Shown here: positions 1,298 to 54,364 of the stretch, one piece after another
Position numbering within the stretch: the first letter of the stretch is position 1
Layout: every line of letters begins with the position of its first letter
NCBI GenBank assembly: GCA_041496545.1
Contig: JBGQET010000007.1
Coordinates: 5,424 to 69,423, forward strand
Source: Candidatus Binatia bacterium
Lineage (GTDB): Bacteria; Desulfobacterota; Binatia; DP-6
Length of the DNA stretch: 64,000 nucleotides
Direction of reading: 5' to 3'
Translations under genes and position numbers: made by a program
The notes under the pieces: generated by a model
What the model saw: the letters and a program-made list of their open reading frames with translations, nothing else
What the model was told of the DNA's origin: nothing
The model's database searches: none

Positions 1298-2599
1298 CTA
1301 CGCGGCGCGCAGCGTCGCCAGCACGCCGTCGCGCGGGCGCAGCGTCACGAGCGGCTGCGCGACGACCGGGTGGCCGGGCACGAGGTCGAACCGATAGCGC
1401 TGCGCGATCGTGGCTACCACGAGTTGCGCCTCGAGCAGCGCGAAGTCCTCGCCGATGCAGCGGTGCGGGCCGCCGCCGAAGGGGAAGTACGCGTAGCGAG
1501 GGCGGCTGTTCGTACGCTCGGGCGCGAAGCGGTCGGGGTCGAAGGCCTCGGGGTTCTCCCAGAGCGCCGGGTGGCGGTGCGTGACGTAGGGGCTGAAGCC
1601 GACGAGCGTGCCGGCGGGGATTCGGAAGCCGTCGATCGTGTCCTCGGCGACCGCCTGGCGGCCGTTGCCCCACGCGGGCGGGTAGAGGCGCATGGCCTCC
1701 TCGATCACCTGACGGGTGTACGGCAGCGCCGGGAGGTCCTCGAGCGCCGGCACGCGGCCGGCGAGCACGCGGCGCAGCTCGTCGGCGAGCCGGCCGGCGA
1801 TCTCGGGATGTCGCGACAGCAGGTACCACGTCCACGAGAGCGCCACCGCGGTCGTCTCGTGCCCGGCGAAGAGGAACGTCATGACCTCGTCGCGGAGCTG
1901 GCGGTCGCTCATGGCCTCGCCGGTCTCCTCGTCGCGGGTGGCGAGCAGCATGGAGAGGAGGTCGCCCGTGTCGCGGCCGCTGGCGCGCCGCTCGGCGATG
2001 ATCCCGTAGACGATGCGATCGAGGGCACGGCGCGAGCGCCGGAAGCGGAGCGCGGCCGGCGTGGGCATGGGCACGAACATGGGGAGCGGGAGGATCTGGT
2101 GCATGCGGCGGTTCACGAACTCGAGGCCGATGGTGACGTCGCGGCTGACGCGGTCTGCTTCATCGGAGAGGTCGATGCCGAAGAGCGCGCGGCCCGCGAT
2201 CGCGAGCGTGAGGCGCTTCATCTCGTCGGCGATGTCGAGGGGCGCCCCGGAGGCGGCGTGCGGCGCCCAGCGCGCGAGCAGCGTCTCGGTGGCCTCGGTC
2301 ATCAGGGTCGCCAGCGCGCCGATGCGGGCGCGGTGGAAGGCGGGCTGGGCCAGGCGGCGCTGGCGGCGCCAGAACTCACCCTCGGTGGTGATGAGCCCGT
2401 CGCCGGCGAGGACCTTCACGCGGCCGAAGATGACGCCGCGCACATAGTTGTGGTTGTTGTCCTGGAGAATGTGCTTCACGTGCTCGGGATGCACCACCAG
2501 GGTGAAGCTCCATCGTGGTGTGGGCCCGTAGCGGAAGGTGACGACGTCGCCGTAGCAGCGCGCGGCGTCCATCAGCATGGCGATCGGGTCTCGGCGCAT
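1298..2599 (-). CDS. Cytochrome P450 monooxygenase
   Basis: It has the FPFGGGPHRCIG heme-thiolate loop, an ETTA I-helix motif and ExxR. The start could be the ATG at 2599 or lie upstream, because an in-frame PAPGP hinge-like motif sits before that Met. Confidence 0.85.
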   Translation of the reverse strand: MRRDPIAMLMDAARCYGDVVTFRYGPTPRWSFTLVVHPEHVKHILQDNNHNYVRGVIFGRVKVLAGDGLITTEGEFWRRQRRLAQPAFHRARIGALATLMTEATETLLARWAPHAASGAPLDIADEMKRLTLAIAGRALFGIDLSDEADRVSRDVTIGLEFVNRRMHQILPLPMFVPMPTPAALRFRRSRRALDRIVYGIIAERRASGRDTGDLLSMLLATRDEETGEAMSDRQLRDEVMTFLFAGHETTAVALSWTWYLLSRHPEIAGRLADELRRVLAGRVPALEDLPALPYTRQVIEEAMRLYPPAWGNGRQAVAEDTIDGFRIPAGTLVGFSPYVTHRHPALWENPEAFDPDRFAPERTNSRPRYAYFPFGGGPHRCIGEDFALLEAQLVVATIAQRYRFDLVPGHPVVAQPLVTLRPRDGVLATLRAA

Positions 2600-2716
2600 C
2601 GTGCGCAGGAAGCCCACCGGCGTTCGGTGGCGCGGGCCCGGGGCGGGTTCGGGTTCGCCGCGCCGGAGTTCGACGAGTACCCGTGGGTTTTCGACGCCCC
2701 GCGCCGCTACCAGAGC

Positions 2717-4375
2717 GTGCGGGTCTTCCGGCGGGGTGTGCTGCGCCGCCTCGTCGTCGACTGCACGCTCGCGCCGGCGGGCGGCGGCACCCGCGTCGAG
2801 TACGTGACGCGCGCCGAGCTGATCGGCGGTCCCGTCGGCGCCGTCGCGCGCTGGCAGTTTCGCCGCCGCGTCGGGCGCGGCCTGGTGGCGGTGCGCGCGC
2901 TGCTCGAAGCGCGCGCCGGCGGGAGCGACATCGCGTGGGTCTTCCGTTATCCGCGCGAAGACGAGGTTCGGGCGCGTGCCCGGCCGCTCGTCGACGCGCT
3001 GGTCGGCGCGCACCCCGCCGACGCGCCGCTCTACGCGCGACTCGTCGACACCATCGCCATCGCGCCCGACGCGGACGTCGCGCGCATGCGGCCCTACGAG
3101 TTGGCCGTGCGCTGGGGGCTCGCGCGCCGCGACGTGCTCGCCGCGTGCCTCCGTGCGACGAAGGGCGGGCTGCTCCGTCTCTCGTGGGACATCGTCTGCC
3201 CTTCGTGCGAGCAGCCGCCGGCGACCGCCACACGTCTCGCCGACGTGCCGACCGGCGGCCACTGCCCGATGTGCGACGTCGACTTCGCGGTCAGCTTCGA
3301 GCGCGGCGTCGAGGCGACGTTCGCGCCCTCGCCCGCGCTGCGCGACGCGGAGCGCCTCGTCTTCTGCCACGGCTCGCCGATGCGGACGCCGCACTGGGTG
3401 GCGCAGTTCCCGGTCGAGGGCGGTGCGGTGCGCACGATCGCCACCCAGCTGGGTGCCGGGCGCTACCGCGTGCAAGCCTCGGGCGCCGACGGCCGCGCCC
3501 TCTTCGACGTCGATCCCGACGACGGCGGCGCTCGCCTGGGCGTCACCATCCCGGGGCCCGCGGTGGGGACGCGGCCGGCCGTCGTGCTCGACACGCCCAT
3601 CGTGCGCGCCGGCGCGCTCGAGCTGGTGGTGCGGAACGACGACACCACGCCCCACCGCGTGCAGGTGGTCCACCGCGACTACGAGTCGCAGGCCGCCACG
3701 GCGGCCGACGTGACGGCGCTCGGCGTCTTCCGCGACCTCTTCGCCGAGGACGTGCTCAGCCCCGAGCAGCACGTCGGGGTCGGCCGCACGGTGATCCTCT
3801 TCACCGACCTCGTCGGCTCGACGGCGCTCTACGAGCGGGTCGGCGACGCGGCGGCGTACGGCCTCGTCCGCCGCCACTTCCGTCTCCTCTTCGACGCCGT
3901 GGAGCGTCATCGCGGCGCGGTCGTGAAGACGGTGGGCGACTGCGTGATGGCGTCGTTCGCGCGGCCGCTCGACGGCGCGCGCGCGGGACGGGCGGCGATC
4001 GAGGCGCTCGCGGGCTTGACCGACCGCGATGGGAACGCCCCGGGGTTGGCGCTCAGGGTCGGCGTGCACGTCGGGCCGTGCCTCGCCATCGAGGCCAACC
4101 GCGTCGCCGACTACTTCGGGCGGACGGTGAACCTCGCGGCGCGCGTCGAAGCGCAAGCCGGGCCGAACGAGATGGTGCTCTCGGCGAGCATGCGCGACGA
4201 CCCGGAGGTCGCGGCCTGGCTCGCCGCCGCGCCCGCGGACGGCGTCGCCGTCCGTGCCGACCGCTGCGTGGTGAAAGGGGTCGCGGGAGAGCTGGAGGTC
4301 GTGCGCGTGGGCGTTCCCGTCAGCCCGGCGGCGGGCGGAGGAGCGCGAACTCCGGATTCGCGTACGCGCGCGTGA
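2717..4375 (+). CDS. Class III adenylate/guanylate cyclase with an N-terminal uncharacterised domain
   Basis: The C-terminal cyclase homology domain is clear (ILFTDLVGSTALYE…TVGDCVMASF…RVGVHVGPC…FGRTVNLAARVE). GTG start candidates are at 2717 and 2738. It is divergent from the P450 gene. Confidence 0.8.
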   Translation: MRVFRRGVLRRLVVDCTLAPAGGGTRVEYVTRAELIGGPVGAVARWQFRRRVGRGLVAVRALLEARAGGSDIAWVFRYPREDEVRARARPLVDALVGAHPADAPLYARLVDTIAIAPDADVARMRPYELAVRWGLARRDVLAACLRATKGGLLRLSWDIVCPSCEQPPATATRLADVPTGGHCPMCDVDFAVSFERGVEATFAPSPALRDAERLVFCHGSPMRTPHWVAQFPVEGGAVRTIATQLGAGRYRVQASGADGRALFDVDPDDGGARLGVTIPGPAVGTRPAVVLDTPIVRAGALELVVRNDDTTPHRVQVVHRDYESQAATAADVTALGVFRDLFAEDVLSPEQHVGVGRTVILFTDLVGSTALYERVGDAAAYGLVRRHFRLLFDAVERHRGAVVKTVGDCVMASFARPLDGARAGRAAIEALAGLTDRDGNAPGLALRVGVHVGPCLAIEANRVADYFGRTVNLAARVEAQAGPNEMVLSASMRDDPEVAAWLAAAPADGVAVRADRCVVKGVAGELEVVRVGVPVSPAAGGGARTPDSRTRA

Positions 4376-5698
4376 AGCCGAGACGCTCGAGCGCCGCTGC
4401 ATCCTCGCGGTGCGCGAGCACGACGGGCGCGTGCGGGACGCGGTCCGGGGCGGCGGTCGAGCGCAGGTCCCGGTCGAGATAGAAGAGGCAAGCGGCGCGG
4501 AGGTTCGGGCTGTCGGTGCGGAAGCCTGCGAGCGGGCTCCGGTCGCCGGGGGCGAGCACCTCGAGGGCCGGACCGAGCGCTTTCAAGTGCGTTGCGGCGT
4601 GCGTGTGGACGCGGATGGGGAGCACGAGGAGCGCCAGCCCGAGCGCGGCGAACAAGCGCGTCGCGACCTGGGGCACGCGCGCGCGCCAGCCGTCGGGCAG
4701 GACGCGGTCGAGGCCGAGCGCGGTCAGGATGGCGGCGGGCGGGTAGAACTGGTGCAGGTAGCGCGCGCGGCGGCCCTGCGAGAGGTAGAGGAGTGCCAAG
4801 TACCCGCCCGCCCAGCAGAGCACGTAGAGGAGGTTGCGGTCGCGGGCGCGCGCCGCGCGCACGGCGGCGACGACGCCGACGGCGAGGAACGCGACCCACG
4901 GCCAGTCGTCCTTCACGAGGACGCTCAGGTACGACGCCGTCGGCCCGCGCCAGAGCCGTCCCGCGAGCCGGTCGACGACCTGGGTGTGGAAGTAGGTGTT
5001 CAGGAAGGGCTCCCCCCAGTGCACCACCTCGTAGACGTGCCAGGGCAGGCAGACCGCCGCGCCGAGCGCGACCGAGGCGAGAAAGCGCCAGGAGAGGAGG
5101 AGTCCGAGCCGTCGCTCGACGGCGCACCAGATGAGGAACAGGTAGGGGCCCGTCAGCCCGAAGACGCCCTTCGTCATGACCCCGAGACCCCACGCGACGC
5201 CGGCGAGCGCGAAGCCGCGCCCGCCCGCCGCCGCCCCGCGCACGTAGAGCCAGAGCGAGAGGAGGGTGAAGAACGTCACGCCCGAGTCGAGGCGGAAGGT
5301 GGCCGAGTTCCGCACGAAGCGTGGCGTGGTGGCGAGCACCAGCGCCGCGGTCAGCGCGAGCCGCTCGTCCACGAAGCGCCGCGCGAGCTGGAAGAGCACG
5401 ACGCAGGAGAGGACGCCGAAGAGCGCCGAGAAGAGCTTCGCCGCGAACACCGACGGGCCGAGGACGCGGTAGCTGGCGGCCGCGAGCCAGAACATGAGCG
5501 GGGGCTTGTTCCAGTAGTGCGTGTCGCCCAGCCAGAGGTTGAGCCAGTCCCCCGACCTGACGATGCCCTTCGCAACCGCGGCGTAGAGCACCTCGTCGCG
5601 GAAGAGGTCGCCCTCCCAGAGGCGCGCCATCATCGTGACCGCGGCGGCGAAGAGGACGAGCAGCAGGCCGCGGCGGCCGAGGGCGGGCTCGCTCACGG
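4320..5698 (-). CDS. Glycosyltransferase family 39 (ArnT/PMT-like, dolichyl- or undecaprenyl-phosphate sugar transferase)
   Basis: It is polytopic and shows GT39 features (…GDTHYWNKPPLMFWL…). A GTG start at 5698 overlaps the upstream cytochrome c stop by about 4 nt. Confidence 0.75.
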
Positions 5699-6556
5699 CG
5701 CGGAGAGGCTCGGCGCCCGGTACACCGGCGGGACGCGGAACACGTCGTGCGGATGGTCGCCGATGAAGCCGTCGAAGTCCTGCCCGAGCGTCTGCACGCC
5801 GGGGTCGTCGAGGAAGCGGCGGAGGGTGTCGTCGTCGCGGAAGGCGAACAGCGTGGTGAGGACGGTCTGCGGGCGGCGGCGGTCGACGAAGGTGTCGATG
5901 CCGAGGAGCCCGTTCCAGGTGAGGAAGCGGGGCCGGCCGGTGGCGGCGAACCACTGCTCGAAGTCGGCGAGCCGTCCCTCGCGCACGTCGTAGGTCTGGA
6001 CGAGGAAGCTCTTGGCCTCGCTGGGTGGCGGCGCGGGGAGGGCGGCGAGCGCCGGCGGGGTGGTGTGGACCGCGTGCGGGTTCGCGGGATCCACCTGCGC
6101 GGTGAGGTACGCGACCAGGTCGGCGAGCTGCGCCAGCGTCATGTCCGGGTAGGCGGGCATCACCGAGTGGCCGTCGGGGTCGAGGTAGCCCGGGCCGGCG
6201 ATCAGCACGGCGTCGGGGTTCAGGATCGACTCGACGAAGTACTCGGGCGGGTGATGGCTCCCCATGCCGGAGAGATCGGGCCCCGCACCCGCGGTGGGCG
6301 AGCCCTTCTCGCCCGCGATCGCGTGACACGCGGGGCAGCCGAGGTCGACGAACGCCCGTCGCCCGGCGACCGGGTCGCCCGGCGGCGGCGTCAGGCGCCA
6401 GCCGGGCGGCACGCCGCCGGCGCGGTGGAGCGCGTCCATCGAGATGCGGACGCCGGGTTCGCCGCGGCGGACCGCGCGCCCGCCGCCACCCCGCTCACCG
6501 CACGCGCCCGCGAGCAGCGCCGCGAGCCCGAGGGCGACCACCGACCTCCTGGGCAC
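5693..6556 (-). CDS. Mono-heme cytochrome c lipoprotein
   Basis: It has a lipoprotein signal peptide (LAALLAGACG) and a single CPACH heme-binding motif. Confidence 0.75.
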   Translation of the reverse strand: MPRRSVVALGLAALLAGACGERGGGGRAVRRGEPGVRISMDALHRAGGVPPGWRLTPPPGDPVAGRRAFVDLGCPACHAIAGEKGSPTAGAGPDLSGMGSHHPPEYFVESILNPDAVLIAGPGYLDPDGHSVMPAYPDMTLAQLADLVAYLTAQVDPANPHAVHTTPPALAALPAPPPSEAKSFLVQTYDVREGRLADFEQWFAATGRPRFLTWNGLLGIDTFVDRRRPQTVLTTLFAFRDDDTLRRFLDDPGVQTLGQDFDGFIGDHPHDVFRVPPVYRAPSLSAP

Positions 6557-7856
6557 CGAGGCCCTCTGTCACAAGCGGTCGGGCGTGCGCAAGCGACGAG
6601 GCGTCGCAACTCGAGCCGCTCGCTCCGGGGAGCGCGTCGAAGTAGAAGCCGGTGAGCGCGCACGCCTCGTCGTCCGGTGTCGCGCCGCCGACCGCGTTGG
6701 CGACGACGCACGCACCCGTGAAGCTGCGGCCTGGATAGGCCGGGTCGGCGGACGGGCAGGCGAGCGGATTCTGCACCTCGGTGCACGGCCTGGCCGGGCC
6801 CCCGCCGGGCAGACCGCGCGGCGTTCCGGGCGGCTCTCCCGCGCGCTCCTCGCAGCCGAGGCGCGTCGGGGTCGACACCCCGTTCTCGGTCCAGCACTCG
6901 TAGCGGAGCATCTGCCCGGCGCGCAGCAGCAAGGGCGGCTGGAGCGACCGCGTCCCCGGGTCGGTGTAGTCGACGGCGCCGAAGAAGTGCCGCCGCCCCG
7001 GCTCGAACGGGTTCGCCACCGCGTCGCCGCCGGCGAGGACGTTTCCACCCGCATCGACGACGTCGACGCCGAGGAAGCGTCCCCGCTCGTGCATGCGTCC
7101 GGTGATCGCGAGCACGCACACGTCCCCGGCGGGGCCGCCCCCGACGCCCGGTTCCCACACGTCGCGTACGGGTGGCTGGTCCGGGAGCAACGCGTTCAGC
7201 GCGGCCGTGGAGGCTTCCGTCGAGCGCAGCGCCGACGGCGGGACCAGCAGACCCAGCTCCGCCGACGCGGCCTCGAGCGGCAGCGCGATGCGCGGGGACC
7301 GATTGCGCGGCGCGCGCCGCAGCGTCGCCGACGCCGACCCGACCCGCGGCCGGTCCGCCCCGTTCACCCAGTTGATGTCGAGGAGGAAGCCGATGCCGCC
7401 CGGGCCCTCACCCGGGGCGCGCGGCGTCGGAGCGAGACGGAGCGCGACCCCCGGGGGCAGGGCCCGCCGGGCGCGGACGGCGAAGCCGCTCGCCACGAGT
7501 TGGCGACGATCGCGGTCGGACGGACCCAGAGCGAGGCAGGCGCGGCTCGACACCACTCGCCCCGCGTCGGCCGCGAACTCCGCGAACCGCTCGCCTCGGT
7601 ACAGGTAGACGAGGAAGTGCGCGATGCCGAAGGCGCCGCGTGCCCCCTGGACGCGCAGGTCCCAGCTTTCGAGATCGAAGGGCGTCGTCGCGCGCAGGGG
7701 GACGAAGACGCAGAGCTCCGGCCTGGTCCCCGCCGCGACGCTGACGTGCGGGAAGCGGAGCTTGACGGTGCGCGGCTCGCGCGCCGGCGCCGGGCGGCTG
7801 GCGAGCACGAGCAGCGCGACGAAGAAGCCGGCTCCACGCAGCGGCGTGCGGATCAT
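6495..7856 (-). CDS. Secreted PHM/DBH-like protein, a paralogue of the 52641..53825 protein with the copper ligands lost
   Basis: It has a signal peptide and aligns along its length with the 52641 protein (ELCVF/EVCEAL; LGCEE/LGCEAT; …DDEAC/…DDDMC). The HH, H, HxH and M positions are mostly substituted. Confidence 0.65.
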   Translation of the reverse strand: MIRTPLRGAGFFVALLVLASRPAPAREPRTVKLRFPHVSVAAGTRPELCVFVPLRATTPFDLESWDLRVQGARGAFGIAHFLVYLYRGERFAEFAADAGRVVSSRACLALGPSDRDRRQLVASGFAVRARRALPPGVALRLAPTPRAPGEGPGGIGFLLDINWVNGADRPRVGSASATLRRAPRNRSPRIALPLEAASAELGLLVPPSALRSTEASTAALNALLPDQPPVRDVWEPGVGGGPAGDVCVLAITGRMHERGRFLGVDVVDAGGNVLAGGDAVANPFEPGRRHFFGAVDYTDPGTRSLQPPLLLRAGQMLRYECWTENGVSTPTRLGCEERAGEPPGTPRGLPGGGPARPCTEVQNPLACPSADPAYPGRSFTGACVVANAVGGATPDDEACALTGFYFDALPGASGSSCDASSLAHARPLVTEGLGAQEVGGRPRARGAARGRVR

Positions 7857-7875: not shown

Positions 7876-8925
7876 TCACGGGAAGGCGAGGCGCTTGCCG
7901 TGAGCCTTCACGCGAAAGTTGTCCGTCGAGCGCCCGAGCAGGCCGCCCGCGGCGTAGCTCGTCTGCACCGCGACGGGCGTGCCGGCGGGCGCGGGCAGCA
8001 CCGGGGCACGGAGCTTCACGGCGAGGAGGTAGTTGTCGATCTGGAAGCGACGGCGCACGAACCGCACGCCCATCGACAGGAGCCGATCGTCGCTGCTCGC
8101 CACGAACAGACGGCGGCCGCGCTGGCGGAGCCCGCCCAGCACCGCGCCGGCGCCGATCGTGACCCCGCCGGTGCTGGCGCGGAAGATCGCCGGCTTGCCG
8201 GGAAAGTCGAGGACTTCGTCGGGGTTCGGCGCGAAGAGCACCCTCATGGTCAAGGTTTTCGAGGTCACGCCCGCCGACACGACGACGGAGTCGGTGCTGC
8301 GACGGAACTGGTCCTTGTCGGGGACGGGTGTGGCCTGGCAGCTCGCGCGCACCACCAGCACGCCGCCGAGCGGCGACGGGAGCCCGCTCTGCTGGACGAC
8401 GCCGACGAGCGTGTAGCGGCCGTTGGCGTCCCGCGGCGAGCCCTCGAGGACGAGACCCGGCACCGCCGTGAGCCCCGTGGTGAGCGTCATCGGTAGGGTG
8501 AGCGCCGCGCCGCCGACCGTGAAGCCGAGCGGGAGGTCGGGGACGATGAACTCGCCGGTGCTGCCGCTGCGCGCGCCGGTGCTGCGCAAGAGCGCCACGA
8601 AGAAGCTCGGCAGCTCGAGCATGCTCGCGGTCCCGCCGGCGACGAACGGGCGCGCCGCGTCGGACTGCAGCGTGAACTGCGCGGTCTGATCCTGCATGTC
8701 GTAGGTGGTGTGCACGCCGTCGGGCGCGTTGGAGGGCGGGGCGGTCGCCGCGACGCCGCTGGCCGGGGCGTCGACCTCGAGGGGGTCGAAGGCGCACGTG
8801 CTGGGGAGCACGGGGACGTTGTGCGCCCCGGCCGCGCGTGCCGAGAGGAGCGCGGCCAGGACGAGGATCGAGCGCCGGAGCGCCATGATGGAGGTGAAGC
8901 TAGAAGCGCGCCGCGTACGACGCAA
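7876..8925 (-). CDS. Secreted hypothetical protein
   Basis: A signal peptide (MALRRSILVLAALLSARAAGA) is present from the alternative start at 8886. The gene sits first in the minus-strand operon 8925 to 4320. Confidence 0.6.
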   Translation of the reverse strand: MRRTRRASSFTSIMALRRSILVLAALLSARAAGAHNVPVLPSTCAFDPLEVDAPASGVAATAPPSNAPDGVHTTYDMQDQTAQFTLQSDAARPFVAGGTASMLELPSFFVALLRSTGARSGSTGEFIVPDLPLGFTVGGAALTLPMTLTTGLTAVPGLVLEGSPRDANGRYTLVGVVQQSGLPSPLGGVLVVRASCQATPVPDKDQFRRSTDSVVVSAGVTSKTLTMRVLFAPNPDEVLDFPGKPAIFRASTGGVTIGAGAVLGGLRQRGRRLFVASSDDRLLSMGVRFVRRRFQIDNYLLAVKLRAPVLPAPAGTPVAVQTSYAAGGLLGRSTDNFRVKAHGKRLAFP

Positions 8926-8981: not shown

Positions 8982-9359
8982 ATGCGTTCCGCCGTGCTGC
9001 GCCGTCTCGGCGCCTCGCTGCTCGCCGTCGCCGTGCTGGCGGCGGGGCTCGCTGGCGAGACCCGGACGTGCCGGCAGTGCGCGCCGAGCTGCCCCATGCA
9101 CGCCAAGAAGCCCGGCTGTCACCACGGCGCGCGACCGTCGTGCCACCGCGAGGGCGGGCCGATGGGATTCCGCGCGGCGTGCGGGCACCGCGCCGATCCC
9201 GCGCTCCAGGCCGTCGCCATGCGGGCGCTCTTCTGCTCTCCCGCTGCCTCGGGTCGCGCCGTCGTCGCGCGACGCGTCGCTGTGCCCGAGCGCGAGCCGG
9301 ATCTCGGCGTCGCCCCCGAGCCGCCCACCGAGCCGCCGCGCGCCCCCGCCGTCGGTTGA
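8982..9359 (+). CDS. Small Cys/His/Met-rich exported protein, putative metal-binding
   Basis: A signal-like N-terminus is followed by CRQCAPSCPMH…GCHHG…SCH…ACGH. It lies directly upstream of the copCD cluster. Confidence 0.4.
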   Translation: MRSAVLRRLGASLLAVAVLAAGLAGETRTCRQCAPSCPMHAKKPGCHHGARPSCHREGGPMGFRAACGHRADPALQAVAMRALFCSPAASGRAVVARRVAVPEREPDLGVAPEPPTEPPRAPAVG

Positions 9360-9407
9360 GCCGACCGACTCCCGGATTGCCGCGCGCGCGCGGCGGAAGG
9401 GGCGCTC

Positions 9408-10334
9408 ATGCGAAATCGGATGGGCGCCGCGGGTGTGCTCGTCGTCTGCCTCGGGGCAGCGACGGCGCACGCTCACGGCGTCGTTGGAGAGCGATCGTTC
9501 ATCGAGCCATTCATCACCGAGGACGTGAACCCGAAGAACGAGTTCGTGATCGCACGACCGGAGTTCGATCATTCCCGCGACGGGAAGGAATTCTCGCTCG
9601 GCTTCGGCCTGGAGAAGAAGATATCGGATCGCTTCAGCCTCACGCTCGACTCGTCGTGGAACGACATCACCCCGAAGGCGGCGGACGAGCCGCACGCCAG
9701 CGGCTTCGGCAACCTCGGCCTCACCCTCAAGTACGCGTTCTTCATCAACCCGGCGCACGAGGCCATCGCCTCGTTCGCGATCGAGTCGACGGCGCCGACC
9801 GGCACCGCCGACGTCGGCGCGGAGCAGCGCGCGTCGTTCAAGCCCTTCGTGCTCTACGGCAAGGGCGCCGGCGACCTGCCGTCGTGCCTCAAGTACCTCC
9901 GCCCGCTCGCCGTGCAGGGCGACGCGGGCTTCGAGATCTCCCTCGACAACGACCGCACCACGACCCTCGTGCACAACGTCGCGATCCAGTACAGCATCCC
10001 GTACCTCCAGTCCGTCGTGCGCGACTTCGGCCTGCGCTGGCCGCTCAACAAACTGCTCCCCGTCGCCGAGTTCAACTTCGAGCACGGCGTGAACGGCGCG
10101 GAGCACGCCGTCCACAAGGTGACCACTACCCCGGGCATCGTCTACATGGACCGCTGGGTCGAGATCGGGATCGCGGGACGCTTCCCGCTCAACACCTCCG
10201 CGCACCGCGACCTCGACTGGGGCGTGATCGGCATCATCGACCTCTTCATCGACGACATCTTCCCGTGGTCCCGGTGGCAACCGATCGGTGGCATGGGGCT
10301 GCCGACGCCACCCGCCAACGAGCCAAAGTCGTGA
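9408..10334 (+). CDS. Secreted or outer-membrane protein, possibly an outer-membrane channel of the phenol-degradation (MetA-pathway) family
   Basis: It has a GGAAGGGG RBS and a signal peptide. Its stop overlaps the copC GTG start (GTGA). Confidence 0.6.
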   Translation: MRNRMGAAGVLVVCLGAATAHAHGVVGERSFIEPFITEDVNPKNEFVIARPEFDHSRDGKEFSLGFGLEKKISDRFSLTLDSSWNDITPKAADEPHASGFGNLGLTLKYAFFINPAHEAIASFAIESTAPTGTADVGAEQRASFKPFVLYGKGAGDLPSCLKYLRPLAVQGDAGFEISLDNDRTTTLVHNVAIQYSIPYLQSVVRDFGLRWPLNKLLPVAEFNFEHGVNGAEHAVHKVTTTPGIVYMDRWVEIGIAGRFPLNTSAHRDLDWGVIGIIDLFIDDIFPWSRWQPIGGMGLPTPPANEPKS

Positions 10335-10693
10335 AGCGCGGCGTCGCGGCGTTCGGTTTTCTCGTGGGTCTGCTCGCGCTCCGGCCGCCCCCGGCCGGAG
10401 CGCACGCCTTCCTCGACCACGCGGAGCCGCGGGTGGGGTCGAGCGTCGCGGCGCCTCCCACCCTGACGCTCGTCTTCACCGAGCCGGTCGAAGCCGGCTT
10501 CTCTCACCTCGCCCTCCGTGCGCCGGACGGCAAGCCGGTCGAGACGCCGGCGCTCGAGCAGCCGGCGCCGAACACGCTGCGTGTTGCGCTGCCGGCGCTC
10601 GCGCCGGGCGAGTACACCGTCGAGTGGGGCGTGGTCTCGGTCGACACGCATCCGACCGACGGCCGCTTCAACTTCTCCGTGAAGAAACCGTGA
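10331..10693 (+). CDS. copC: Copper resistance protein CopC (periplasmic copper chaperone)
   Basis: It has a signal peptide followed by the mature N-terminus HAFLDHAEP and a CopC-like beta-sandwich sequence. It is translationally coupled to both neighbours. Confidence 0.75.
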   Translation: MKRGVAAFGFLVGLLALRPPPAGAHAFLDHAEPRVGSSVAAPPTLTLVFTEPVEAGFSHLALRAPDGKPVETPALEQPAPNTLRVALPALAPGEYTVEWGVVSVDTHPTDGRFNFSVKKP

Positions 10694-11514
10694 ACGCGGC
10701 CTTCACGGTCACCGGCTGGCTCGACCTGGTGGCGACGGTGCTCCTCGCCGGCGGCCTCGTGTTCGCCGCGGCGGTCGCGACGCCCGCGGAAGCCGGCCGG
10801 CGGACGATGCGCGTGGCTGCCGACGCCCTCGCGCCGGTCCTCGTCGCGAGCTTCGCGCTGGTCGGCATCCGGATGCACGAGGTGGCGGGTGGCGAGGGCG
10901 TCGGATTCGTCGGCCGGCTCCTCGCCATGCACTGGGGGCGCTACTGGATCGGCCGCGCCGCCGGCCTCGTCGTGCTGCGCGTCGGGCTCGCGGCGGCGCG
11001 CCCGCGCTGGACCCTCCTCGCCGTCTTCGCCGTGCCGTGGCTCCTCCTGCGGAGCTCCCAGGGGCATGCGGGGGCGCACGGCACGGTGCCCGCGCTCGTC
11101 GACTGGGCGCACCTCGCGGGCGCCGCGGCGTGGCTCGGCGGTCTCGCGCAGATGGCGCTCCTCGCCGACGACGTGCCGGCCGCGGCGCGCCTGCGGCGCC
11201 TCGCGACGGCGGCGCTGGCGCTCGTCGTGCCCGCCGGCGTGTACGCGGCCTTCCTGCACGTCCCGAGCCTCGACCGGCTGCTGCACACGCCCTACGGGCA
11301 GACGCTCCTCGCGAAGCTCGCCCTGGTCGCCGTCCTCTTGACGCTCGGGGCCGCGAACCACTTCCGTCACGTGCCGGCGCTGGTCGCGGGGGACGCCGTT
11401 GCCGCCGTGCGGCTCCGGCGCACGGTGCGGATGGAGCTGGTGCTCGCCGCCGTGATCCTGCTGCTCAGCGCGCTCCTCGGCGTGCTGCCGATGCCGCACG
11501 AGCCGCCCTCGTGA
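10690..11514 (+). CDS. copD: Copper resistance protein CopD (inner-membrane copper transporter)
   Basis: It has eight predicted transmembrane helices with CopD family character. The GTG start overlaps the copC stop. Confidence 0.75.
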   Translation: MNAAFTVTGWLDLVATVLLAGGLVFAAAVATPAEAGRRTMRVAADALAPVLVASFALVGIRMHEVAGGEGVGFVGRLLAMHWGRYWIGRAAGLVVLRVGLAAARPRWTLLAVFAVPWLLLRSSQGHAGAHGTVPALVDWAHLAGAAAWLGGLAQMALLADDVPAAARLRRLATAALALVVPAGVYAAFLHVPSLDRLLHTPYGQTLLAKLALVAVLLTLGAANHFRHVPALVAGDAVAAVRLRRTVRMELVLAAVILLLSALLGVLPMPHEPPS

Positions 11515-11789
11515 GGCGACGCGCGCTTGCCGTCGTCCTGCTCGCGCTCGTCGCCTGCGGGCGCGACGTCGAGTACGTCGGCGCGGGCGAGGTGGTGTCC
11601 GTCGACGAGCCGCGGCTGCACGTGACGATCCGGCACGAGGACATTCCGGGGCTCATGGGCGCGATGACGATGCGCTTCGCGGTCGGCTCGCCCGACGTCC
11701 TGGCCGGCGTCGAGCCGGGGGCGCACGTCCGCTTCCGGTTGCGGCCCGCGGGCGGCGACTACGTCGTGACGCGGGTCGAGGCCCGCTGA
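11511..11789 (+). CDS. CusF-like periplasmic copper-binding lipoprotein
   Basis: It has a lipobox (LALVACG) and an H…M.M.F motif (IRHEDIPGLMGAMTMRF). The GTG start overlaps the copD stop. Confidence 0.65.
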   Translation: MRRRALAVVLLALVACGRDVEYVGAGEVVSVDEPRLHVTIRHEDIPGLMGAMTMRFAVGSPDVLAGVEPGAHVRFRLRPAGGDYVVTRVEAR

Positions 11790-11790
11790 G

Positions 11791-12492
11791 TCAGCGGCGG
11801 CGCAGCGAGTCGATGTACGCCACCAGGTCCCAGAGCTGCGGCGGCTCGAGGGCGTCGGCGTACGACGGCATGGGCGTGCCGTCGAGGCCGGTCACCAGCG
11901 AGCGGTAGACGTCGGCGGGCGCGCCGCCGTTCTTGAAGCGGGTGGGGAGGCGGAGGTCGGCGGGCAGGATGCGGAGCCCCGTCTCGTCCTTGAGCTGCTT
12001 CGCCGAGCCGCCGTCGCCGCGGCCGCGGTCGCCGTGGCAGGACGGGCAGCCGGCGCTCTCGTAGAGGTCGCGGCCGCGCGACGCCGCCGCGGCGTCGAGC
12101 GGCGGCGCCTCGGGGAGGGCGATGGGCGTGGGCGTCGCGCTCGCGAAGCCGGGGTAGAAGCGCTTCACGGCGGTGATCGCGAGGCGGCGCTCGCCCGCCG
12201 TGAGCCCGATGAAGGACGGCATGTAGCCCGGGATGCCGCGCTCGAGGGTGCGCAGGATATCCGCGTCGGTCGGCAATTGCCCGCTCGGCGTCGAGCGGAG
12301 CTTGAAGCGGCCGCGGGTGAAGTCGCGCGGGCGCGGCGACAGGTACTTGTTGATCGAGAAGTACGCGGGCCCGTCGCCGCGCCCGTCCTTGCCGTGGCAC
12401 CACGCGCAGGCGTGGTTGTAGACGGCGGTCGCGTCGTCGGCCGCGACGGCCGGGGCGGCGAGCGCGAGGACGAGGAGGACGGCCGTTCGCAT
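11791..12492 (-). CDS. Di-heme cytochrome c
   Basis: It has a signal peptide and two CxxCH motifs (CAWCH, CPSCH). Confidence 0.8.
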   Translation of the reverse strand: MRTAVLLVLALAAPAVAADDATAVYNHACAWCHGKDGRGDGPAYFSINKYLSPRPRDFTRGRFKLRSTPSGQLPTDADILRTLERGIPGYMPSFIGLTAGERRLAITAVKRFYPGFASATPTPIALPEAPPLDAAAASRGRDLYESAGCPSCHGDRGRGDGGSAKQLKDETGLRILPADLRLPTRFKNGGAPADVYRSLVTGLDGTPMPSYADALEPPQLWDLVAYIDSLRRR

Positions 12493-12494
12493 CG

Positions 12495-14123
12495 TCAGAG
12501 CGCGAAGTCGAAGCCGAGGAAGAGACCGTTCCGCCAGTTGCCGAAGGGGTGGCTGCCGCCCGGCGTGAGGTTGACGCTGTCGCGCAGCGAGAGGCTCAGG
12601 AGGGCGGGGATCGGGACCCTAGCCAGATTGTCGCCCTCGAAGACGTACCAGCGCATCTGGAGGTGCAGCACCTGCGACTGCCGCGGGCCCGGCTCGAAGA
12701 CGACGTCGCTCTTGAAGCCGCCGGCGCTCATCCAGTCGTAGCGCACCGACGGCACGAGCGAGTGCGTGAGGCGGTAGTCCACCTCCGCGGTGAGCCCGTC
12801 GGCGCGTCGCTTGAAGCGCCCGGCGAGGCGCGACGGGACGTTGAAGACCTGGTCGTGCATGTAGGCGCCGTAGGTGTCCCACGGGCCGCGGCGCAGGTTC
12901 CAGCCGACGCCCTGGCGGGAGACATCGAGGTCGCGTTGGTTCGTGATCGTGCCGACGCCGAGCGGCGGTGGCGGGCGGTGCTGCGTGACGGGGCCGCCGA
13001 AGTCGCCGAGCGGGATCGACGGCAGCGGCGCCGGCGAGAGGTAGAACACGCGGTACGCCTCCCAGCCGTAGTTGCCGAGCACGGAGACCGAGCCGGTCAG
13101 GCCGTCGCGGTCGCCGAAGTCCCAGCGCAGCATGCCGTACGGCACGGCGGTGTGCAGCCCGTCGGTGAACTCGGGTGCCGCGCCGGTCGTCGTGCCGAGC
13201 TGGTAGAGGAGGTGGGAGGCGAAGAGGCGGCCGTGGAGGTCGAGGCCGGGCGCGGCCTCGGCGTGGTAGAGGGTCGGCTCGGTGGCGAGGAGCGTGTGGT
13301 CGCCGCGCTTGAAGATGCCGAAGAACTTGGCGCCGAAGGCGTAGGGGTTGAGCGGCATGCGGAGGAGGAAGCCGGACTCCGAGGTATCGGCCGGCACGTC
13401 GTGGAAGAGCTGGCGGTCGACGGCGTAGGAGAAGTTGGTCGAGGGGTCGATGCGACCGAACATGATCATGGGGCCGTGACCGACGAGGCCGTCGCCCATG
13501 GTCGCCATGCCGTGCCCGCCGTGGTCCATGTCTCCCATGTCGTGGCCCATCTGCTCGTGGTCCATGTGGGCCATGTCGTGTCCGCCGTGGCCGTGGAGGC
13601 CGAGCAGCATGGGGACGTCGACCATGACGAACGCCTTCTGCATGCCGCCCGTGTTGCTGTTCACGAAGTCGCCGCGCTTGTTGATGTCGGTCTCGTGGAC
13701 GGTGTGCTCGAGCTCGATGAAGAGGCTCGTCGAGGGCGTGAGCGGACCCGCGATGTAGACGCTCGTGTGCTCGGGGACGGCGAAGCCGCCCCGCGAGCCC
13801 GGCGCGTCGTCGAACTGCGAGCGCTCGAACCACTCGCCCCGCGTCCAGATCGCCATGCCCTTGGTGAGCGCGTCCTTCCACGTCGACGGGAACGGCGTCC
13901 ACATCGTGCCCGGCGGCTTGAAGCCGTTCATGTGGAACTCCTCGCCGTAGGCGTTGAGGCGCGGAACGGCGGAGTGGCAGACCCCGCAGGCGAGGTTGTA
14001 GCGACGGGCGAAGGCGGGTAGCGCCGCCGCCGAACGCGCCGTGACGAGGAGAGCGACAAGAGCGAGCAGGCGGCGCGCGAGCATCGGTCGCGCCCGTATA
14101 CCGGCCCGTGCCCCCGGGCTCAA
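12495..14123 (-). CDS. Secreted CxxCH-containing protein with a Met/His-rich copper-binding-like region and a beta-barrel-like C-terminus
   Basis: It has a signal peptide, a CGVCH motif and the tract HGHGGHDMAHMDHEQMGHDMGDMDHGGHGM. The C-terminus is rich in aromatic/Gly strands. Confidence 0.7.
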   Translation of the reverse strand: MSPGARAGIRARPMLARRLLALVALLVTARSAAALPAFARRYNLACGVCHSAVPRLNAYGEEFHMNGFKPPGTMWTPFPSTWKDALTKGMAIWTRGEWFERSQFDDAPGSRGGFAVPEHTSVYIAGPLTPSTSLFIELEHTVHETDINKRGDFVNSNTGGMQKAFVMVDVPMLLGLHGHGGHDMAHMDHEQMGHDMGDMDHGGHGMATMGDGLVGHGPMIMFGRIDPSTNFSYAVDRQLFHDVPADTSESGFLLRMPLNPYAFGAKFFGIFKRGDHTLLATEPTLYHAEAAPGLDLHGRLFASHLLYQLGTTTGAAPEFTDGLHTAVPYGMLRWDFGDRDGLTGSVSVLGNYGWEAYRVFYLSPAPLPSIPLGDFGGPVTQHRPPPPLGVGTITNQRDLDVSRQGVGWNLRRGPWDTYGAYMHDQVFNVPSRLAGRFKRRADGLTAEVDYRLTHSLVPSVRYDWMSAGGFKSDVVFEPGPRQSQVLHLQMRWYVFEGDNLARVPIPALLSLSLRDSVNLTPGGSHPFGNWRNGLFLGFDFAL

Positions 14124-48189: not shown

Positions 48190-49074
48190 ATGAACCGCAT
48201 CCGATACACTATCGCGGCCATGGTCGGGTTCCTGGTGACCGCGCCCATGGCGACCGTCTACACGGCGGGTCCGCCGACGGTGAGCAATTTCTCTATCGCG
48301 GACGTCACCAACGGCGGTGTCCTGACGGAGGTGGACGGAAGCCACGGGGTGCCGGGCGACGTCGTGCGAGTCGGCTACGTGCAGCGGAACTTCAACGAGG
48401 GCGTCCCCGGCGCCGCGACCGACCCGTTTGCGTGGTGCGCCTGGAAGAACGGTGGGAACGAGATCACCCTCGGCTGGGCGACCGTCAACCAGTTCGGCGA
48501 CTTTGCGCTCCCGAATCTGTCGACACAGGTCTATCCGACCAACCCCACCGACGTGTGCGCCTCCGGCTTGATGACACAGATCATCACTCACTCGAATTTC
48601 GGCCCGTCCACGGTGCCCGTCCTGCACTGGCTGAACATTGGCAAGCCCGCGAACGGCATACGGACCGTTGCCGGCTCCATCCAGTACGCCACTCAGGTCG
48701 CGGCGATGGTCGCCGACGGCCCGAAGGACGTCGACGGCGGCGAGAACCACGCGGACCTGAGCACCGACGGCATCGGCGCCGGGCGGCAGGTGAGCTGGAA
48801 GGGGAACGGCGGCACGTTCCAGTCGCCGACCTGCAACGTGGTCGATGAAACGAACATCGGGTCTCCGACGCAGGAGTTCCCCTTCATCGTCGGCAAGCTC
48901 GTCGGCCACGCGCCCGGCGGCTCGGTGCTGGCGATCGCCAAGGGAACTCGACCGGCACTGCGGAATCCGCAGACGATCTACGTCAAGGTGAACATCAAGG
49001 GTCTCCCGGGATGCGGCGGGGGCGGGTTCGGCAGCGGCGCCGGCCTCCTCGGCAGCATCTTCAAGTTCCTCTAG
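48190..49074 (+). CDS. Secreted hypothetical protein
   Basis: It has a signal peptide and lower GC, and it ends Gly-rich (GCGGGGFGSGAGLLGSIFKFL). Confidence 0.6.
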   Translation: MNRIRYTIAAMVGFLVTAPMATVYTAGPPTVSNFSIADVTNGGVLTEVDGSHGVPGDVVRVGYVQRNFNEGVPGAATDPFAWCAWKNGGNEITLGWATVNQFGDFALPNLSTQVYPTNPTDVCASGLMTQIITHSNFGPSTVPVLHWLNIGKPANGIRTVAGSIQYATQVAAMVADGPKDVDGGENHADLSTDGIGAGRQVSWKGNGGTFQSPTCNVVDETNIGSPTQEFPFIVGKLVGHAPGGSVLAIAKGTRPALRNPQTIYVKVNIKGLPGCGGGGFGSGAGLLGSIFKFL

Positions 49075-49136
49075 CCGTCGCGCGGGAACCGGCGTCCATG
49101 TGGCCGCCGGTTCCCGCCCTACTGGAGAGCCATCCC

Positions 49137-50993
49137 ATGTATCCTCACTTCCCCGTGATTCAGCTACACGCGATCGGCACGCTGGTCCGCATCGAGTCCT
49201 ACCCGGCGGCCCACGTCATCGGGCTTCTGGTCCTCGTCGTGATGACGCTCCGCCTCTACGCACGCGACGTCCGCCCGACAGCCACGCTACTCGATCCGTT
49301 CCTCTTCGGCGTCCCGGCCGCGATGCTGGGTGCGAGCGTCCTGGGGTCGCTCACGGCGGGGACATGGCTCCCCGAGCACCTCTCGCTCGCCCCGTCGGTT
49401 CTGTGGACGGGCCACCGGTCCGCGTACGGCGGGTTGCTTGCGGGCGTGGCCGTGGCGGCGCTCGTCGCACGACTCCGACGGATCGACGTCTTGTGCTTCC
49501 TCGATGCGGGCGCGCCTGGCCTGGCCTTCGCGACCTGCTGCGCCCGCATCGGCTGCTTTCTCGGCGGCTGCTGCTACGGCCTTCCTACCGCGTCGGTGCT
49601 GGGCGTGCGCTTTCCCGACGGCCACCCGGGGATGGCAAAGCTCCTGCCCGGTGATCCACGCGGCCTCCATCCGACGCAGCTCTATCTGGCTGCCGCCGCG
49701 CTGGCGATCGGGCTCGTCCTGCTTGCGCTCCGTCGCCGGCAGTGGGGCCGACCCGGACATCGCTTCGCGCTCGGCGCCGCGCTCTACGCCGCTACGACGT
49801 TCGCCGTCGAGCTCCTGCGGGACGACCCGGGCCGCTGGTTCGCCCTCGGCCTCTCCCACACGCAGTGGATCAGCATCGCGATCGTGCTGGCGACGGCCGT
49901 GGTTCTCGGGCGCTCGCCGCGCTTCGCCCGCCGCCGGACGCCCGCGGTCGCCGTCGGTCTTCTGCTGGTCCTCGCCACGACTCCGGCGCGCGCCCAGAGC
50001 GCCGACGACGCGTTCAACGCCATCGCGGAAGGCCTCGTCACCCGTAACCCGACCGCTTCCGTCCTCGTCGCCCAGCTCCTCGAGCTGGGCGGCGGCGGCC
50101 CGCTCACCACTTGGGCGCGGATCGCCAAAGGCGCCGACGGGCTGCTCCAGGGCGACCTCGGGGGCGCGATCGCGCAATGGCAAGCGGCGGCCGCCGCGGA
50201 CCCCGGCACGGCGTGGAGCGCCCAGGCCGACCTCGCGCTCGGCCTGGGGTACATGATGGCCGGCGCCCGCGGCGGGGCCGCGGATGCGCTGGCGGCCGCC
50301 GCCGAGCACGGCGAAGGTGACACGGTCGCGTACGCGGAGGTGTCACTCGGCCGGCTGCAAGCCGTGGCGGGGGACTACGCCGGCGCCGAGCGAAGCTTCC
50401 GACGCGTGTTCGAGGACTACTCCGCCGTCGGAGTTGCCGACGACGCCGCCCTCGGCCTCGCCAAGAGCCTCGTCGCCCAGGACCGACGCGCGGAGGCGCG
50501 CGAGGTGCTCGCCGTTGCGCACGGGCGCTACTGGCATCGCGGGGCGTACATGGTCGCGCGGCGCAACCGGCCGCTTCCGTTCGACCAGGTGGGCAGCCTC
50601 ACGCCCGCGCAGCTCGGGGAGGCGCTCAGGGCGCGCGCCGCCGGCGCGGCCACCCGCGGCGTCTTGCCGATCTACGCCGTGCTCGCGGCGCTGACCGATC
50701 ACTACTCCGGCCCGGACCTCGAGCGGCTCCGTCACCAGATCGCCCGCGCGCCCGGGGCGACGTCCGACCGACCGGCGGCGGCTGCCGTGGTCCAGGCTCG
50801 AGCGGTCGAGCCGGGCGCCGCATCGCAAGCGAGCTCACGCGGGCACTCCACGCCGCGACCACTCGCAGCCGGTCACCGGCAAGGGTTCGGCCGCGTGGCG
50901 GTCGCGTTGCTCGCCCTCGTCGCCACGACCGTAGCGTGGCTGCGCCGGGCCCGCCGGGGTGGACAACCGGGGCGCGGCGCGGTCTACCGATAA
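49137..50993 (+). CDS. Prolipoprotein diacylglyceryl transferase (Lgt)-like membrane domain fused to a C-terminal TPR-like domain
   Basis: Lgt signatures are present (ARIGCFLGGCCYG, HPTQLY). An Ala-rich TPR-like tail ends in a transmembrane segment. Confidence 0.7.
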   Translation: MYPHFPVIQLHAIGTLVRIESYPAAHVIGLLVLVVMTLRLYARDVRPTATLLDPFLFGVPAAMLGASVLGSLTAGTWLPEHLSLAPSVLWTGHRSAYGGLLAGVAVAALVARLRRIDVLCFLDAGAPGLAFATCCARIGCFLGGCCYGLPTASVLGVRFPDGHPGMAKLLPGDPRGLHPTQLYLAAAALAIGLVLLALRRRQWGRPGHRFALGAALYAATTFAVELLRDDPGRWFALGLSHTQWISIAIVLATAVVLGRSPRFARRRTPAVAVGLLLVLATTPARAQSADDAFNAIAEGLVTRNPTASVLVAQLLELGGGGPLTTWARIAKGADGLLQGDLGGAIAQWQAAAAADPGTAWSAQADLALGLGYMMAGARGGAADALAAAAEHGEGDTVAYAEVSLGRLQAVAGDYAGAERSFRRVFEDYSAVGVADDAALGLAKSLVAQDRRAEAREVLAVAHGRYWHRGAYMVARRNRPLPFDQVGSLTPAQLGEALRARAAGAATRGVLPIYAVLAALTDHYSGPDLERLRHQIARAPGATSDRPAAAAVVQARAVEPGAASQASSRGHSTPRPLAAGHRQGFGRVAVALLALVATTVAWLRRARRGGQPGRGAVYR

Positions 50994-51035
50994 AAATTGC
51001 TCGGCGCGCCGAGGATCGCTAGGCACCGGTACCTC

Positions 51036-53839: not shown

Positions 53840-54364
53840 ATGCAGCGCCGGATCCGTCTCGCCTGTCTCTCGGCCGTCGCCCTGCCGGCGCTCGCCTTCG
53901 CCGGCGGCTTCAACAAGACGTACCTCGTGCCCGCGTTCCTCGGCTGCGCCGGGCCCGCCACCTGCGCACCGCAGCGCGAGTCGCTCTACCGCTTCGACTC
54001 CGCCGTCCTGCGCAACTCCGCGTCGCGCTTCCTCGTCCCGGGCAAGGTTGCCTTCATGTTCGAGATCAAGGGCGTGCGTGACGGGGGCGGAAACCTCGTC
54101 ACCACCAACACGGCCGACCGCAGTGACGACTTCAAGCTCGTCTCGATCCCGGGCCAGATCACGATCACGGGCCTCGGCACGTTCCCCGCCGACGCCATTC
54201 CCGAGGTCGTCCTGCCGCTCGACCTGAAGAACGGCGCCGGCAAGCTCTCGTTCAAGACCCCCGAGGCGACGCCGCCCGGCCTCGTCTCCGACGGCGGCGG
54301 CATCGTCGTCCTCGACAACCAGGGCAAGCGGCTGGCGGTCGTCGGCGCGATGTCGAAGCCGTAG
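53840..54364 (+). CDS. Secreted hypothetical protein
   Basis: It has a signal peptide (LACLSAVALPALAFAG) and lies 15 nt downstream of the monooxygenase-like gene. Confidence 0.6.
   Translation: MQRRIRLACLSAVALPALAFAGGFNKTYLVPAFLGCAGPATCAPQRESLYRFDSAVLRNSASRFLVPGKVAFMFEIKGVRDGGGNLVTTNTADRSDDFKLVSIPGQITITGLGTFPADAIPEVVLPLDLKNGAGKLSFKTPEATPPGLVSDGGGIVVLDNQGKRLAVVGAMSKP

Follow-up and report, generated by a model that had tools for sequence, protein, structure and literature searches.

How does a gene for a protein with the fold of a two-copper monooxygenase come to be kept by a bacterium after most of the residues that would hold the copper have gone? The question is raised by a gene, here called A, on a 64,000-nucleotide (nt) stretch of DNA from Candidatus Binatia bacterium (GenBank assembly GCA_041496545.1, contig JBGQET010000007.1, positions 5,424 to 69,423; hereafter, the window), which also carries a paralogue, B, with intact copper ligands (coordinates in Table 1). 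PHM and dopamine beta-hydroxylase (DBH) are the textbook non-coupled two-copper monooxygenases, and an earlier reading of the window (the original prediction) had labelled both proteins PHM-like and A in particular a "pseudo-enzyme or differently metallated variant" within a cytochrome c and GT39 glycosyltransferase operon. Here, we find that A very probably represents a repurposed, non-canonical PHM-fold clade, and we tentatively propose a copper-handling mechanism for it. Taken together, our preferred reading, to which we assign a probability of roughly 0.45, is that A is a PHM-fold protein that was repurposed, is probably no longer a catalyst, and takes part in the handling of copper in the periplasm.

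The relationship between A and B is secure, with a collinear alignment (BLASTP E=3e-26, 30% identity, A residues 16-411 against B residues 8-382) that lies far from the E>0.01 at which the original prediction had placed failure. Neither protein directly matched any Pfam (E<=0.1) or NCBIfam model, and the PHM-like label was therefore tested by other routes. AlphaFold2 (AF2) models built on the family alignments were confident (mean predicted local distance difference test score, pLDDT, of 91.0 for A and 92.3 for B), and when these were searched against the PDB with Foldseek, the best 28 matches of A and the best 25 of B were all PHM or DBH, with both domains covered (best E-values ~4e-11 and ~6e-12, respectively) and with 1YI9, the structure of PHM M314I, among the matches of A. 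The two-domain beta-sandwich (double jelly-roll) core of copper type II monooxygenases is present in A. At the sequence level, the A-family profile picked out PHM chains only among PDB sequences, at an E of ~0.55 that is below significance and exactly at the D-E-M-C strand with the CuM Met, while B alone gave only a chance match (E=1.2) and the B profile none. A joint A and B profile retrieved 995 cluster representatives at E<=0.001 among 1.84 billion (319 at E<=1e-10), and two of the ten distant members tested, P0302 and P0308 (~300 amino acids (aa); profile E of 1e-26 and 1e-24), passed the Pfam Cu2_monoox_C model (PF03712) at 35.4 and 26.7 bits against a cut-off of 23. A itself does not reach the gathering score of PF01082 or PF03712, such that its link to the family is transitive only. 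Fold and transitive sequence homology together support the PHM-like label for A and B, as originally given. Binatia carry a sizeable PHM-fold superfamily, and the members examined outside A's own clade keep the full ligand set.

A is a real gene, with an open reading frame that runs from ATG to TGA at a third-codon-position G+C (GC3) of 0.89 (window G+C 72%), and an identical protein is called in GCA_041492335.1, GCA_041485145.1, and one Joint Genome Institute (JGI) metagenome contig. Its N-terminus has a hydrophobic, Sec-type signal-like segment, judged by eye, from which export is predicted, and the family alignment contains eight invariant and two nearly invariant cysteines. Reading back the sequence, all four ligand substitutions originally described are exact: the first His of the HH pair is Ala79 with His80 retained (GIAHFL in A, GSHHF in B), the third CuH His is Asn162 (LDINWVN, LNSHYFN), the first His of the CuM HxH is Arg254 with His256 retained (GRMHER, AHMHKR), and the CuM Met is Ala398 (DDEACA, DDDMCV). 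Thus, four of six canonical ligands are gone, leaving one of three at CuH and one of three at CuM, and with AHNRHA at the six positions the window copy is among the most depleted versions of its clade. An alternative frame that would restore the ligands is ruled out, since A can be aligned over its full length with 85 relatives and was modelled confidently by AF2 (pLDDT 91). With these losses, pseudo-enzyme or differently metallated variant was the right class of explanation.

Where the original prediction erred was in treating the loss as particular to this gene, because it is clade-wide and ancient. A protein search with A returned 89 proteins, none with a domain annotation, whose named members are Binatia or "Deltaproteobacteria" metagenome bins; the six ligand positions read x-H-[N/E/D]-[H/Q/K/R]-H-[V/A/I/L] in 87 of them, with only P0088 and P0089 (34-37% identical) ligand-intact. 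Further, ~90 A loci were fetched from GTDB genomes and JGI metagenomes (a single peptide pattern gave nine GTDB loci), and the first His, the third His, and the Met were absent from all of them. In a neighbor-joining tree (43 sequences, 364 columns, 100 bootstraps), the degenerate clade is monophyletic in 100/100 bootstraps and nested among ligand-intact clades, nearest to the intact P0212, P0222, and P0224, which share A's characteristic insertions. The B clade is separate (100/100 bootstraps), and with several intact clades lying in between, A and B are not sister copies but distant members of the superfamily. The clade has been seen only in Binatia and descends from ligand-intact ancestors; the first and third CuH His and the CuM Met were lost once, early, and one HxH His was lost later in many lineages, the window's included.

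The losses are also confined: the only positions kept in both intact clades yet lost in A are H79, N160, H162, F390, S394, and M398, i.e., ligands and their immediate neighbors, which looks like targeted dismantling of two copper sites rather than drift. The gene itself is full-length in dozens of lineages at 40-67% identity, with ~19 invariant residues including the cysteines. Pairwise Nei-Gojobori (NG86) estimates for pairs with dS of 0.05-0.3 gave a median ratio of nonsynonymous to synonymous substitution (dN/dS) of 0.31 (interquartile range 0.21-0.36, 81 pairs), values that are probably overestimates given the upward bias of NG86 at GC3 ~0.9; the neighboring genes p308, encoding an outer-membrane protein (OMP)-like product, and up336 gave 0.17 and 0.55. 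A is under purifying selection, and recent decay of the gene was rejected. Monophyly and purifying selection together mark A as a repurposed family member rather than a decaying gene, and, at the sequence level, it fits the operational definition of a pseudoenzyme in that catalytic residues are gone while fold and gene are kept by purifying selection.

What, then, does the clade keep company with? For this, the other A loci were grouped into 50 lineages at 90% identity, with genes called by GC3 (the shadow-ORF clusters c1 and c5 were discarded), and neighbors were counted in the 26 lineages with at least 3 kb of flank or the 32 with at least 1 kb downstream. A homologue of up336, a secreted protein of 336 aa, lies directly downstream of A on the same strand (gap 15-133 nt) in 19/32 lineages and nearby in 23/32. 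The outer-membrane candidate p308, CopC, or CopD occurs near the A-up336 pair in 8/26 lineages, and flanks of sufficient length show the order A, up336, c8 (a small exported Cys/His-rich protein), p308, CopC, CopD, and a His/Met-rich protein of 540 aa. In two loci, up336, c8, p308, CopC, and CopD run together as a single string, towards which A is convergent, making the link of up336 to the Cop genes even closer than that of A. Recurring neighbors elsewhere are c2 (secreted, ~200 aa), the OMP-like c6, a 1,240-aa RoxA-like cytochrome, a TetR regulator, and a two-component system. Pfam and NCBIfam scans of c2, c6, c7 (below), and c8 found no family. The original prediction had seen in the setting a hint of a protein or peptide modification pathway, "not simple copper trafficking"; the conserved neighborhood of A (up336, often with c8, the OMP-like gene, CopC, and CopD) points towards copper handling.

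The partner up336 has no Pfam, NCBIfam, or PDB relative by sequence or profile, and its profile returned only four proteins from a protein search, such that its conservation was read from 26 sequences taken out of the loci. Among these, His22 is invariant (26/26) and follows an A-x-A at the end of a signal-like segment, with Ala at position -1 in 24/26; mature up336 is accordingly predicted to start with His22. C31, D56, D190, and D192 are also invariant, and D34 is conserved. A mature N-terminal His is the defining ligand of histidine-brace copper sites (lytic polysaccharide monooxygenases, CopC, PmoB) and of the YcnI monohistidine brace, where Cu(II) is bound via His1 and a Glu and where there is a genetic link to CopC/CopD (PMC8424229, PMC12362106), and an N-terminal His after a signal peptide has been a successful search handle for new metalloproteins (PMC12537917). 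Compared with YcnI (DUF1775; ycnKJI/CopCD), up336 likewise has a predicted and conserved mature N-terminal His, no second conserved His, conserved acidic residues, and CopC/CopD linkage, but it has no sequence similarity and differs in size.

The window's own operon is a poorer guide. On the minus strand the order is up336, A, cytochrome c, and glycosyltransferase, as originally stated, with 19 nt separating up336 from A, whereas A and cytochrome c overlap by 47 nt and cytochrome c and glycosyltransferase by 4 nt; co-transcription is inferred from this spacing alone, a promoter and terminator scan being uninformative in 72% GC DNA. As a conserved operon with A, this arrangement was rejected: a glycosyltransferase is near A in 0/26 other lineages with at least 3 kb of flank, and four other lineages carry this type of cytochrome c gene in the vicinity of A, each time convergent, on the opposite strand. 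Both genes look like additions specific to this lineage, put there by an accident of local gene order, and do not form the functional unit. The window copy of A also ends in a C-terminal tail of ~30 aa (6495-6590, minus strand) that is absent from every homologue and modelled at low pLDDT, and within which the cytochrome c gene has its Shine-Dalgarno AGGAGG and, at 6541, its GTG start; the placing of that gene behind A is the probable origin of the tail.

We consider A most likely to be non-catalytic, and we tentatively suggest that it is a module for binding or docking that would handle periplasmic copper together with the predicted N-terminal-His protein up336. The PHM substitution M314I, at the CuM Met, inactivates the enzyme, which implies that A would be unable to run canonical two-copper hydroxylation. 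Across the clade the former ligand positions vary freely (H/Q/K/R; N/E/D; L/R/Q/A and others), which argues against metal binding there now, and among the conserved residues specific to the clade, arginines and acids predominate (R105, D116, R181, E214, R288, H290, and R332, besides W322), suggesting a binding surface more than a metal site. Combined with the up336 partnership and the Cop genes, these features lead us to favor a binding or docking role in copper handling. A would then be retained as an enzyme-derived fold without the enzyme's own catalytic metals, as in the copper chaperone CCS, whose SOD1-like domain II has an enzyme-derived fold, lacks the enzyme's metal ligands, and works in copper delivery. 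The analogy is one of logic only; that fold is unrelated to A.

Several observations weigh against this reading. His80 is conserved in 100% and His256 in ~95% of the clade, with the full HxH pair in ~59%, so that a residual or new metal site may exist. The cleavage site of up336 was read by eye and not from a signal-peptide predictor, and His22 is its sole conserved His, which departs from the canonical histidine brace. Only about one lineage in three has the Cop genes alongside A, and in others A sits beside unrelated envelope genes (c6, the RoxA-like cytochrome, the two-component system, and the ~200-aa secreted protein). The dN/dS values carry the estimator bias given above.

The best-surviving alternative, which we nonetheless regard as unlikely, is that A is still a redox enzyme, with a single metal on His256 (plus His254 in most relatives, possibly with His80 or Glu162) that would be reduced directly by the neighboring c-type cytochrome, rendering the CuH electron-transfer site dispensable, and with up336 or a small molecule as substrate. 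The retention of His80 and His256 in nearly all members and of the full HxH in more than half is consistent with this, as are the presence close to A, both in the window and in four other lineages, of a two-domain cytochrome c of one type and the sub-threshold cytochrome-like N-terminal domain of the intact homologues P0228, P0232, and P0234, which suggests cytochrome electron supply. Set against these are the absence of the CuM Met from the whole clade, given the effect of M314I in PHM, the single residue per former site that the window copy keeps, and the free variation at the former ligand positions, which is unlike metal ligands; moreover, most lineages lack the cytochrome gene, and where it occurs outside the window it is convergent and not co-transcribed.

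Two further ideas, both rather improbable in our view, build on copper itself. In one, A and up336 would form a two-polypeptide copper centre, with His1 of up336 placed in the depleted interdomain cleft of A near His80 and His256; if true, this would be a new split copper oxygenase or an enzyme-derived metallochaperone that loads the many intact PHM-like enzymes of Binatia. In the other, A would be a paralogue-directed maturation factor that docks on intact PHM-like enzymes (B and its relatives) and either loads them with copper, together with up336 and CopC, or regulates them. The coexistence of A with an intact paralogue in one genome, here within the window, and its position beside copper-trafficking genes fit the latter, and ligand loss in an enzyme-derived fold is the pattern of CCS domain II. 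However, A and B are only 30% identical and not sister clades, they were never adjacent in the loci examined, and PHM is not known to act as a dimer.

Less probable still is that A is a metal-free glycan- or peptide-binding protein or a hydrolase resembling PNGase F, which would work on envelope glycoconjugates of the adjacent GT-C glycosyltransferase. PHM and PNGase F do have the double jelly-roll fold in common and belong to one Pfam clan, CL0612 (PMC8812541), and the glycosyltransferase belongs to A's gene run through its overlap with the cytochrome c gene end, but that gene recurs near A in none of the 26 other lineages, no PNGase F-like catalytic residues were identified in A, and structural distances weaken the idea, the closest structural neighbor of A not being PNGase F. 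Finally, that A is a decaying pseudogene copy of an intact enzyme, as the four lost ligands, the unique 30-aa tail, and in-frame module deletions in some strains might suggest, is scarcely credible against the intact reading frame with its invariant residues in dozens of lineages, the median dN/dS, the confident AF2 model, and changes that are concentrated at the copper sites and not spread over the protein.

The deletions just mentioned concern three metagenome contigs (L090:3992-5266, L092:1242-2432, and L088:3541-4233) with deletions in the A-up336 module. An in-frame deletion fuses residues 1-220 of A (its N-terminal domain) to residues 106-336 of up336, removing the C-terminal domain of A together with the signal peptide and His1 of up336, while a larger deletion in L088 brings a truncated A beside c8 and p308. 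If the contigs are correctly assembled, some strains can apparently do without the module or are letting it decay.

Placed among known systems, A falls within the PHM/DBH fold and fails both copper sites and the Pfam thresholds, and hence counts as a ligand-less clade within a known superfamily but not as belonging to the enzyme family. Like PHM, DBH, and TBM (PF01082 plus PF03712), it is cysteine-rich and predicted to be exported, and it can be aligned to PHM at the conserved D-[DE]-x-C strand and at the N-terminal strand; unlike them, its clade is without the Met and intact copper sites, is bacterial (Binatia) and predicted to be periplasmic, has no direct Pfam match, and sits in a context of copper trafficking and not of peptide or catecholamine processing. 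With the intact clades (B; P0088, P0089, P0211-P0224), it shares fold, length, and signal sequence, but these keep HH/H/HxH/M, whereas A lost ligands along with the neighboring N160, F390, and S394. A has, and B lacks, an S-T-E-x-S-T helix, a P-G-R-x-H loop, and a C-P-x2-D-P-A-Y-P-G-R-x-F-T-G insertion, and the partner genes differ. PNGase F (clan CL0612) is a bacterial, metal-free member of the same double jelly-roll clan, and according to a survey of such folds (PMC8812541) PHM is widespread among eukaryotes, PNGase F among bacteria. In the literature we searched, no description of bacterial or ligand-less PHM-like proteins came up.

Table 1. Features of the window discussed in the text (positions count from the first letter of the window).
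Feature	Position	Strand	Basis or remark
GT-C glycosyltransferase, PMT/ArnT type (earlier "GT39")	4320-5696	-	PF13231 E=1.3e-22; PF02366 E=3.8e-11
Mono-haem cytochrome c, 282 aa, with uncharacterised C-terminal domain	5693-6541	-	PF00034 E=2.5e-10; start inside the tail of A
A, exported (predicted) PHM/DBH-fold protein of the ligand-degenerate clade, 453 aa	6495-7856	-
Ala398 codon of A	6663-6665	-	CuM Met, in the D-[DE]-M-C strand; V/A/I/L, never Met, in 90 A loci
Arg254-Met-His256 codons of A	7089-7097	-	CuM HxH; first position H/Q/K/R in the clade, second His nearly invariant
Asn162 codon of A	7371-7373	-	third CuH His; N, E, or D across the clade
Ala79-His80 codons of A	7617-7622	-	HH pair of the CuH site; first His gone, second invariant
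up336, secreted 336-aa protein, conserved genomic partner of A	7876-8886	-	no Pfam or PDB match
c8, small exported Cys/His-rich protein, 125 aa	8982-9359	+	between up336 and the OMP-like gene in other Binatia
p308, probable outer-membrane beta-barrel protein	9408-10334	+	sub-threshold Phenol_MetA_deg and OMP_b-brl; synteny
CopC copper-binding protein	10331-10693	+	PF04234 on an identical gene; synteny with A
CopD inner-membrane copper protein	10690-11514	+	PF05425 on an identical gene; synteny with A
His/Met-rich protein, ~530-540 aa	12498-14123	-	N-terminal C-G-V-C-H and tract HGHGGHDMAHMDHEQMGHDMGDMDHGGHGM; no Pfam match
B, ligand-intact PHM-fold paralogue, 394 aa	52641-53825	+	H71, H72, H155, H239, H241, M369
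dn174, secreted 174-aa protein, conserved downstream partner of B	53840-54364	+	unrelated to up336

In the window, the Cop-type genes at 8982-14123 are the same as in other lineages, while the up336-A pair lies on the opposite strand with its internal order swapped. The small protein c8 has the pattern C-x2-C-x3-CPMH...CHH...CH...C and is a candidate Cu(I)-binding protein, and p308 is highly conserved (69-79% identity). Homologues of the His/Met-rich protein follow CopD in several other loci, and in the window its gene adjoins one for a 233-aa cytochrome c (11794-12492). Beyond these genes lies a CusF/CusB/OEP efflux set. On the other side of A, the glycosyltransferase gene and a DUF5939-guanylate cyclase gene on the plus strand (its end at 4375) converge and share 56 nt at their 3' ends (4320-4375), after which comes a cytochrome P450 gene (~1298-2650, minus strand).

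Two families recur around A elsewhere. The secreted c2 (~200 aa, no Pfam match) directly follows A or up336 in 19 loci (including L012, L022-L025, L034, L036, L002, L016, and L062) and is absent from the window; homology of up336 to c2 was sought by BLASTP and hhalign, and none was found. The second, c7, comprises up336 paralogues of ~365 aa without the N-terminal His (L068:10755-11900, also L013, L014, L016, L049, and L055; hhalign probability 98.8%, E=8e-17 against up336). It adjoins the 1,240-aa protein (L068:11929-15654; RoxA-like cytochrome c and lactonase-type matches) and the TetR regulator, often a few kb from A, and members of the up336 family thus seem to recur as partners of proteins of an oxidative or redox type.

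As for B, its family's ligands are invariant in an 84-sequence alignment and read HHHHHM in 120/120 proteins. A ~170-aa protein lies downstream of B in 3/3 loci examined, represented in the window by dn174, for which Pfam and NCBIfam scans found no family. The original prediction was right that each paralogue has a secreted partner gene beside it, but the two partners, up336 and dn174, have no homology detectable by BLASTP or hhalign. It had also set B among radical-SAM and Lgt-like enzymes; the genes concerned (B12-radical-SAM with DUF4070, Lgt-TPR, and a 294-aa product; 48190-52589, plus strand) lie upstream of B in the window's genome but not next to B in the two other loci examined, and the association was rejected, leaving only the ~170-aa partner as a kept neighbor.

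Among the wider relatives, P0228, P0231, P0232, and P0234 are long homologues (656-1170 aa), three of them confirmed as ligand-intact, in which the PHM-like core stands behind an N-terminal region with a C-x4-CH motif and ...IRKWILAGAP. This region has PSCyt1/cytochrome c matches below threshold (PSCyt1 20.8 bits, cut-off 22), and some of the proteins have C-terminal PD40 beta-propeller repeats. Such architectures hint that c-type cytochrome domains may donate electrons to bacterial PHM-like enzymes.

Together, these results describe one Binatia clade that long ago lost both canonical copper sites, was maintained by selection from then on, and travels with a predicted N-terminal-His protein and CopC/CopD. 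The mechanism is inferential, while the stripped-yet-conserved fold tied to copper-trafficking genes is solid and somewhat surprising. If the copper-handling role is true, A would be a bacterial case of an enzyme fold recycled as a copper-handling accessory, and it would offer a way into the metal supply of periplasmic cuproenzymes in an uncultured, environmentally abundant lineage.

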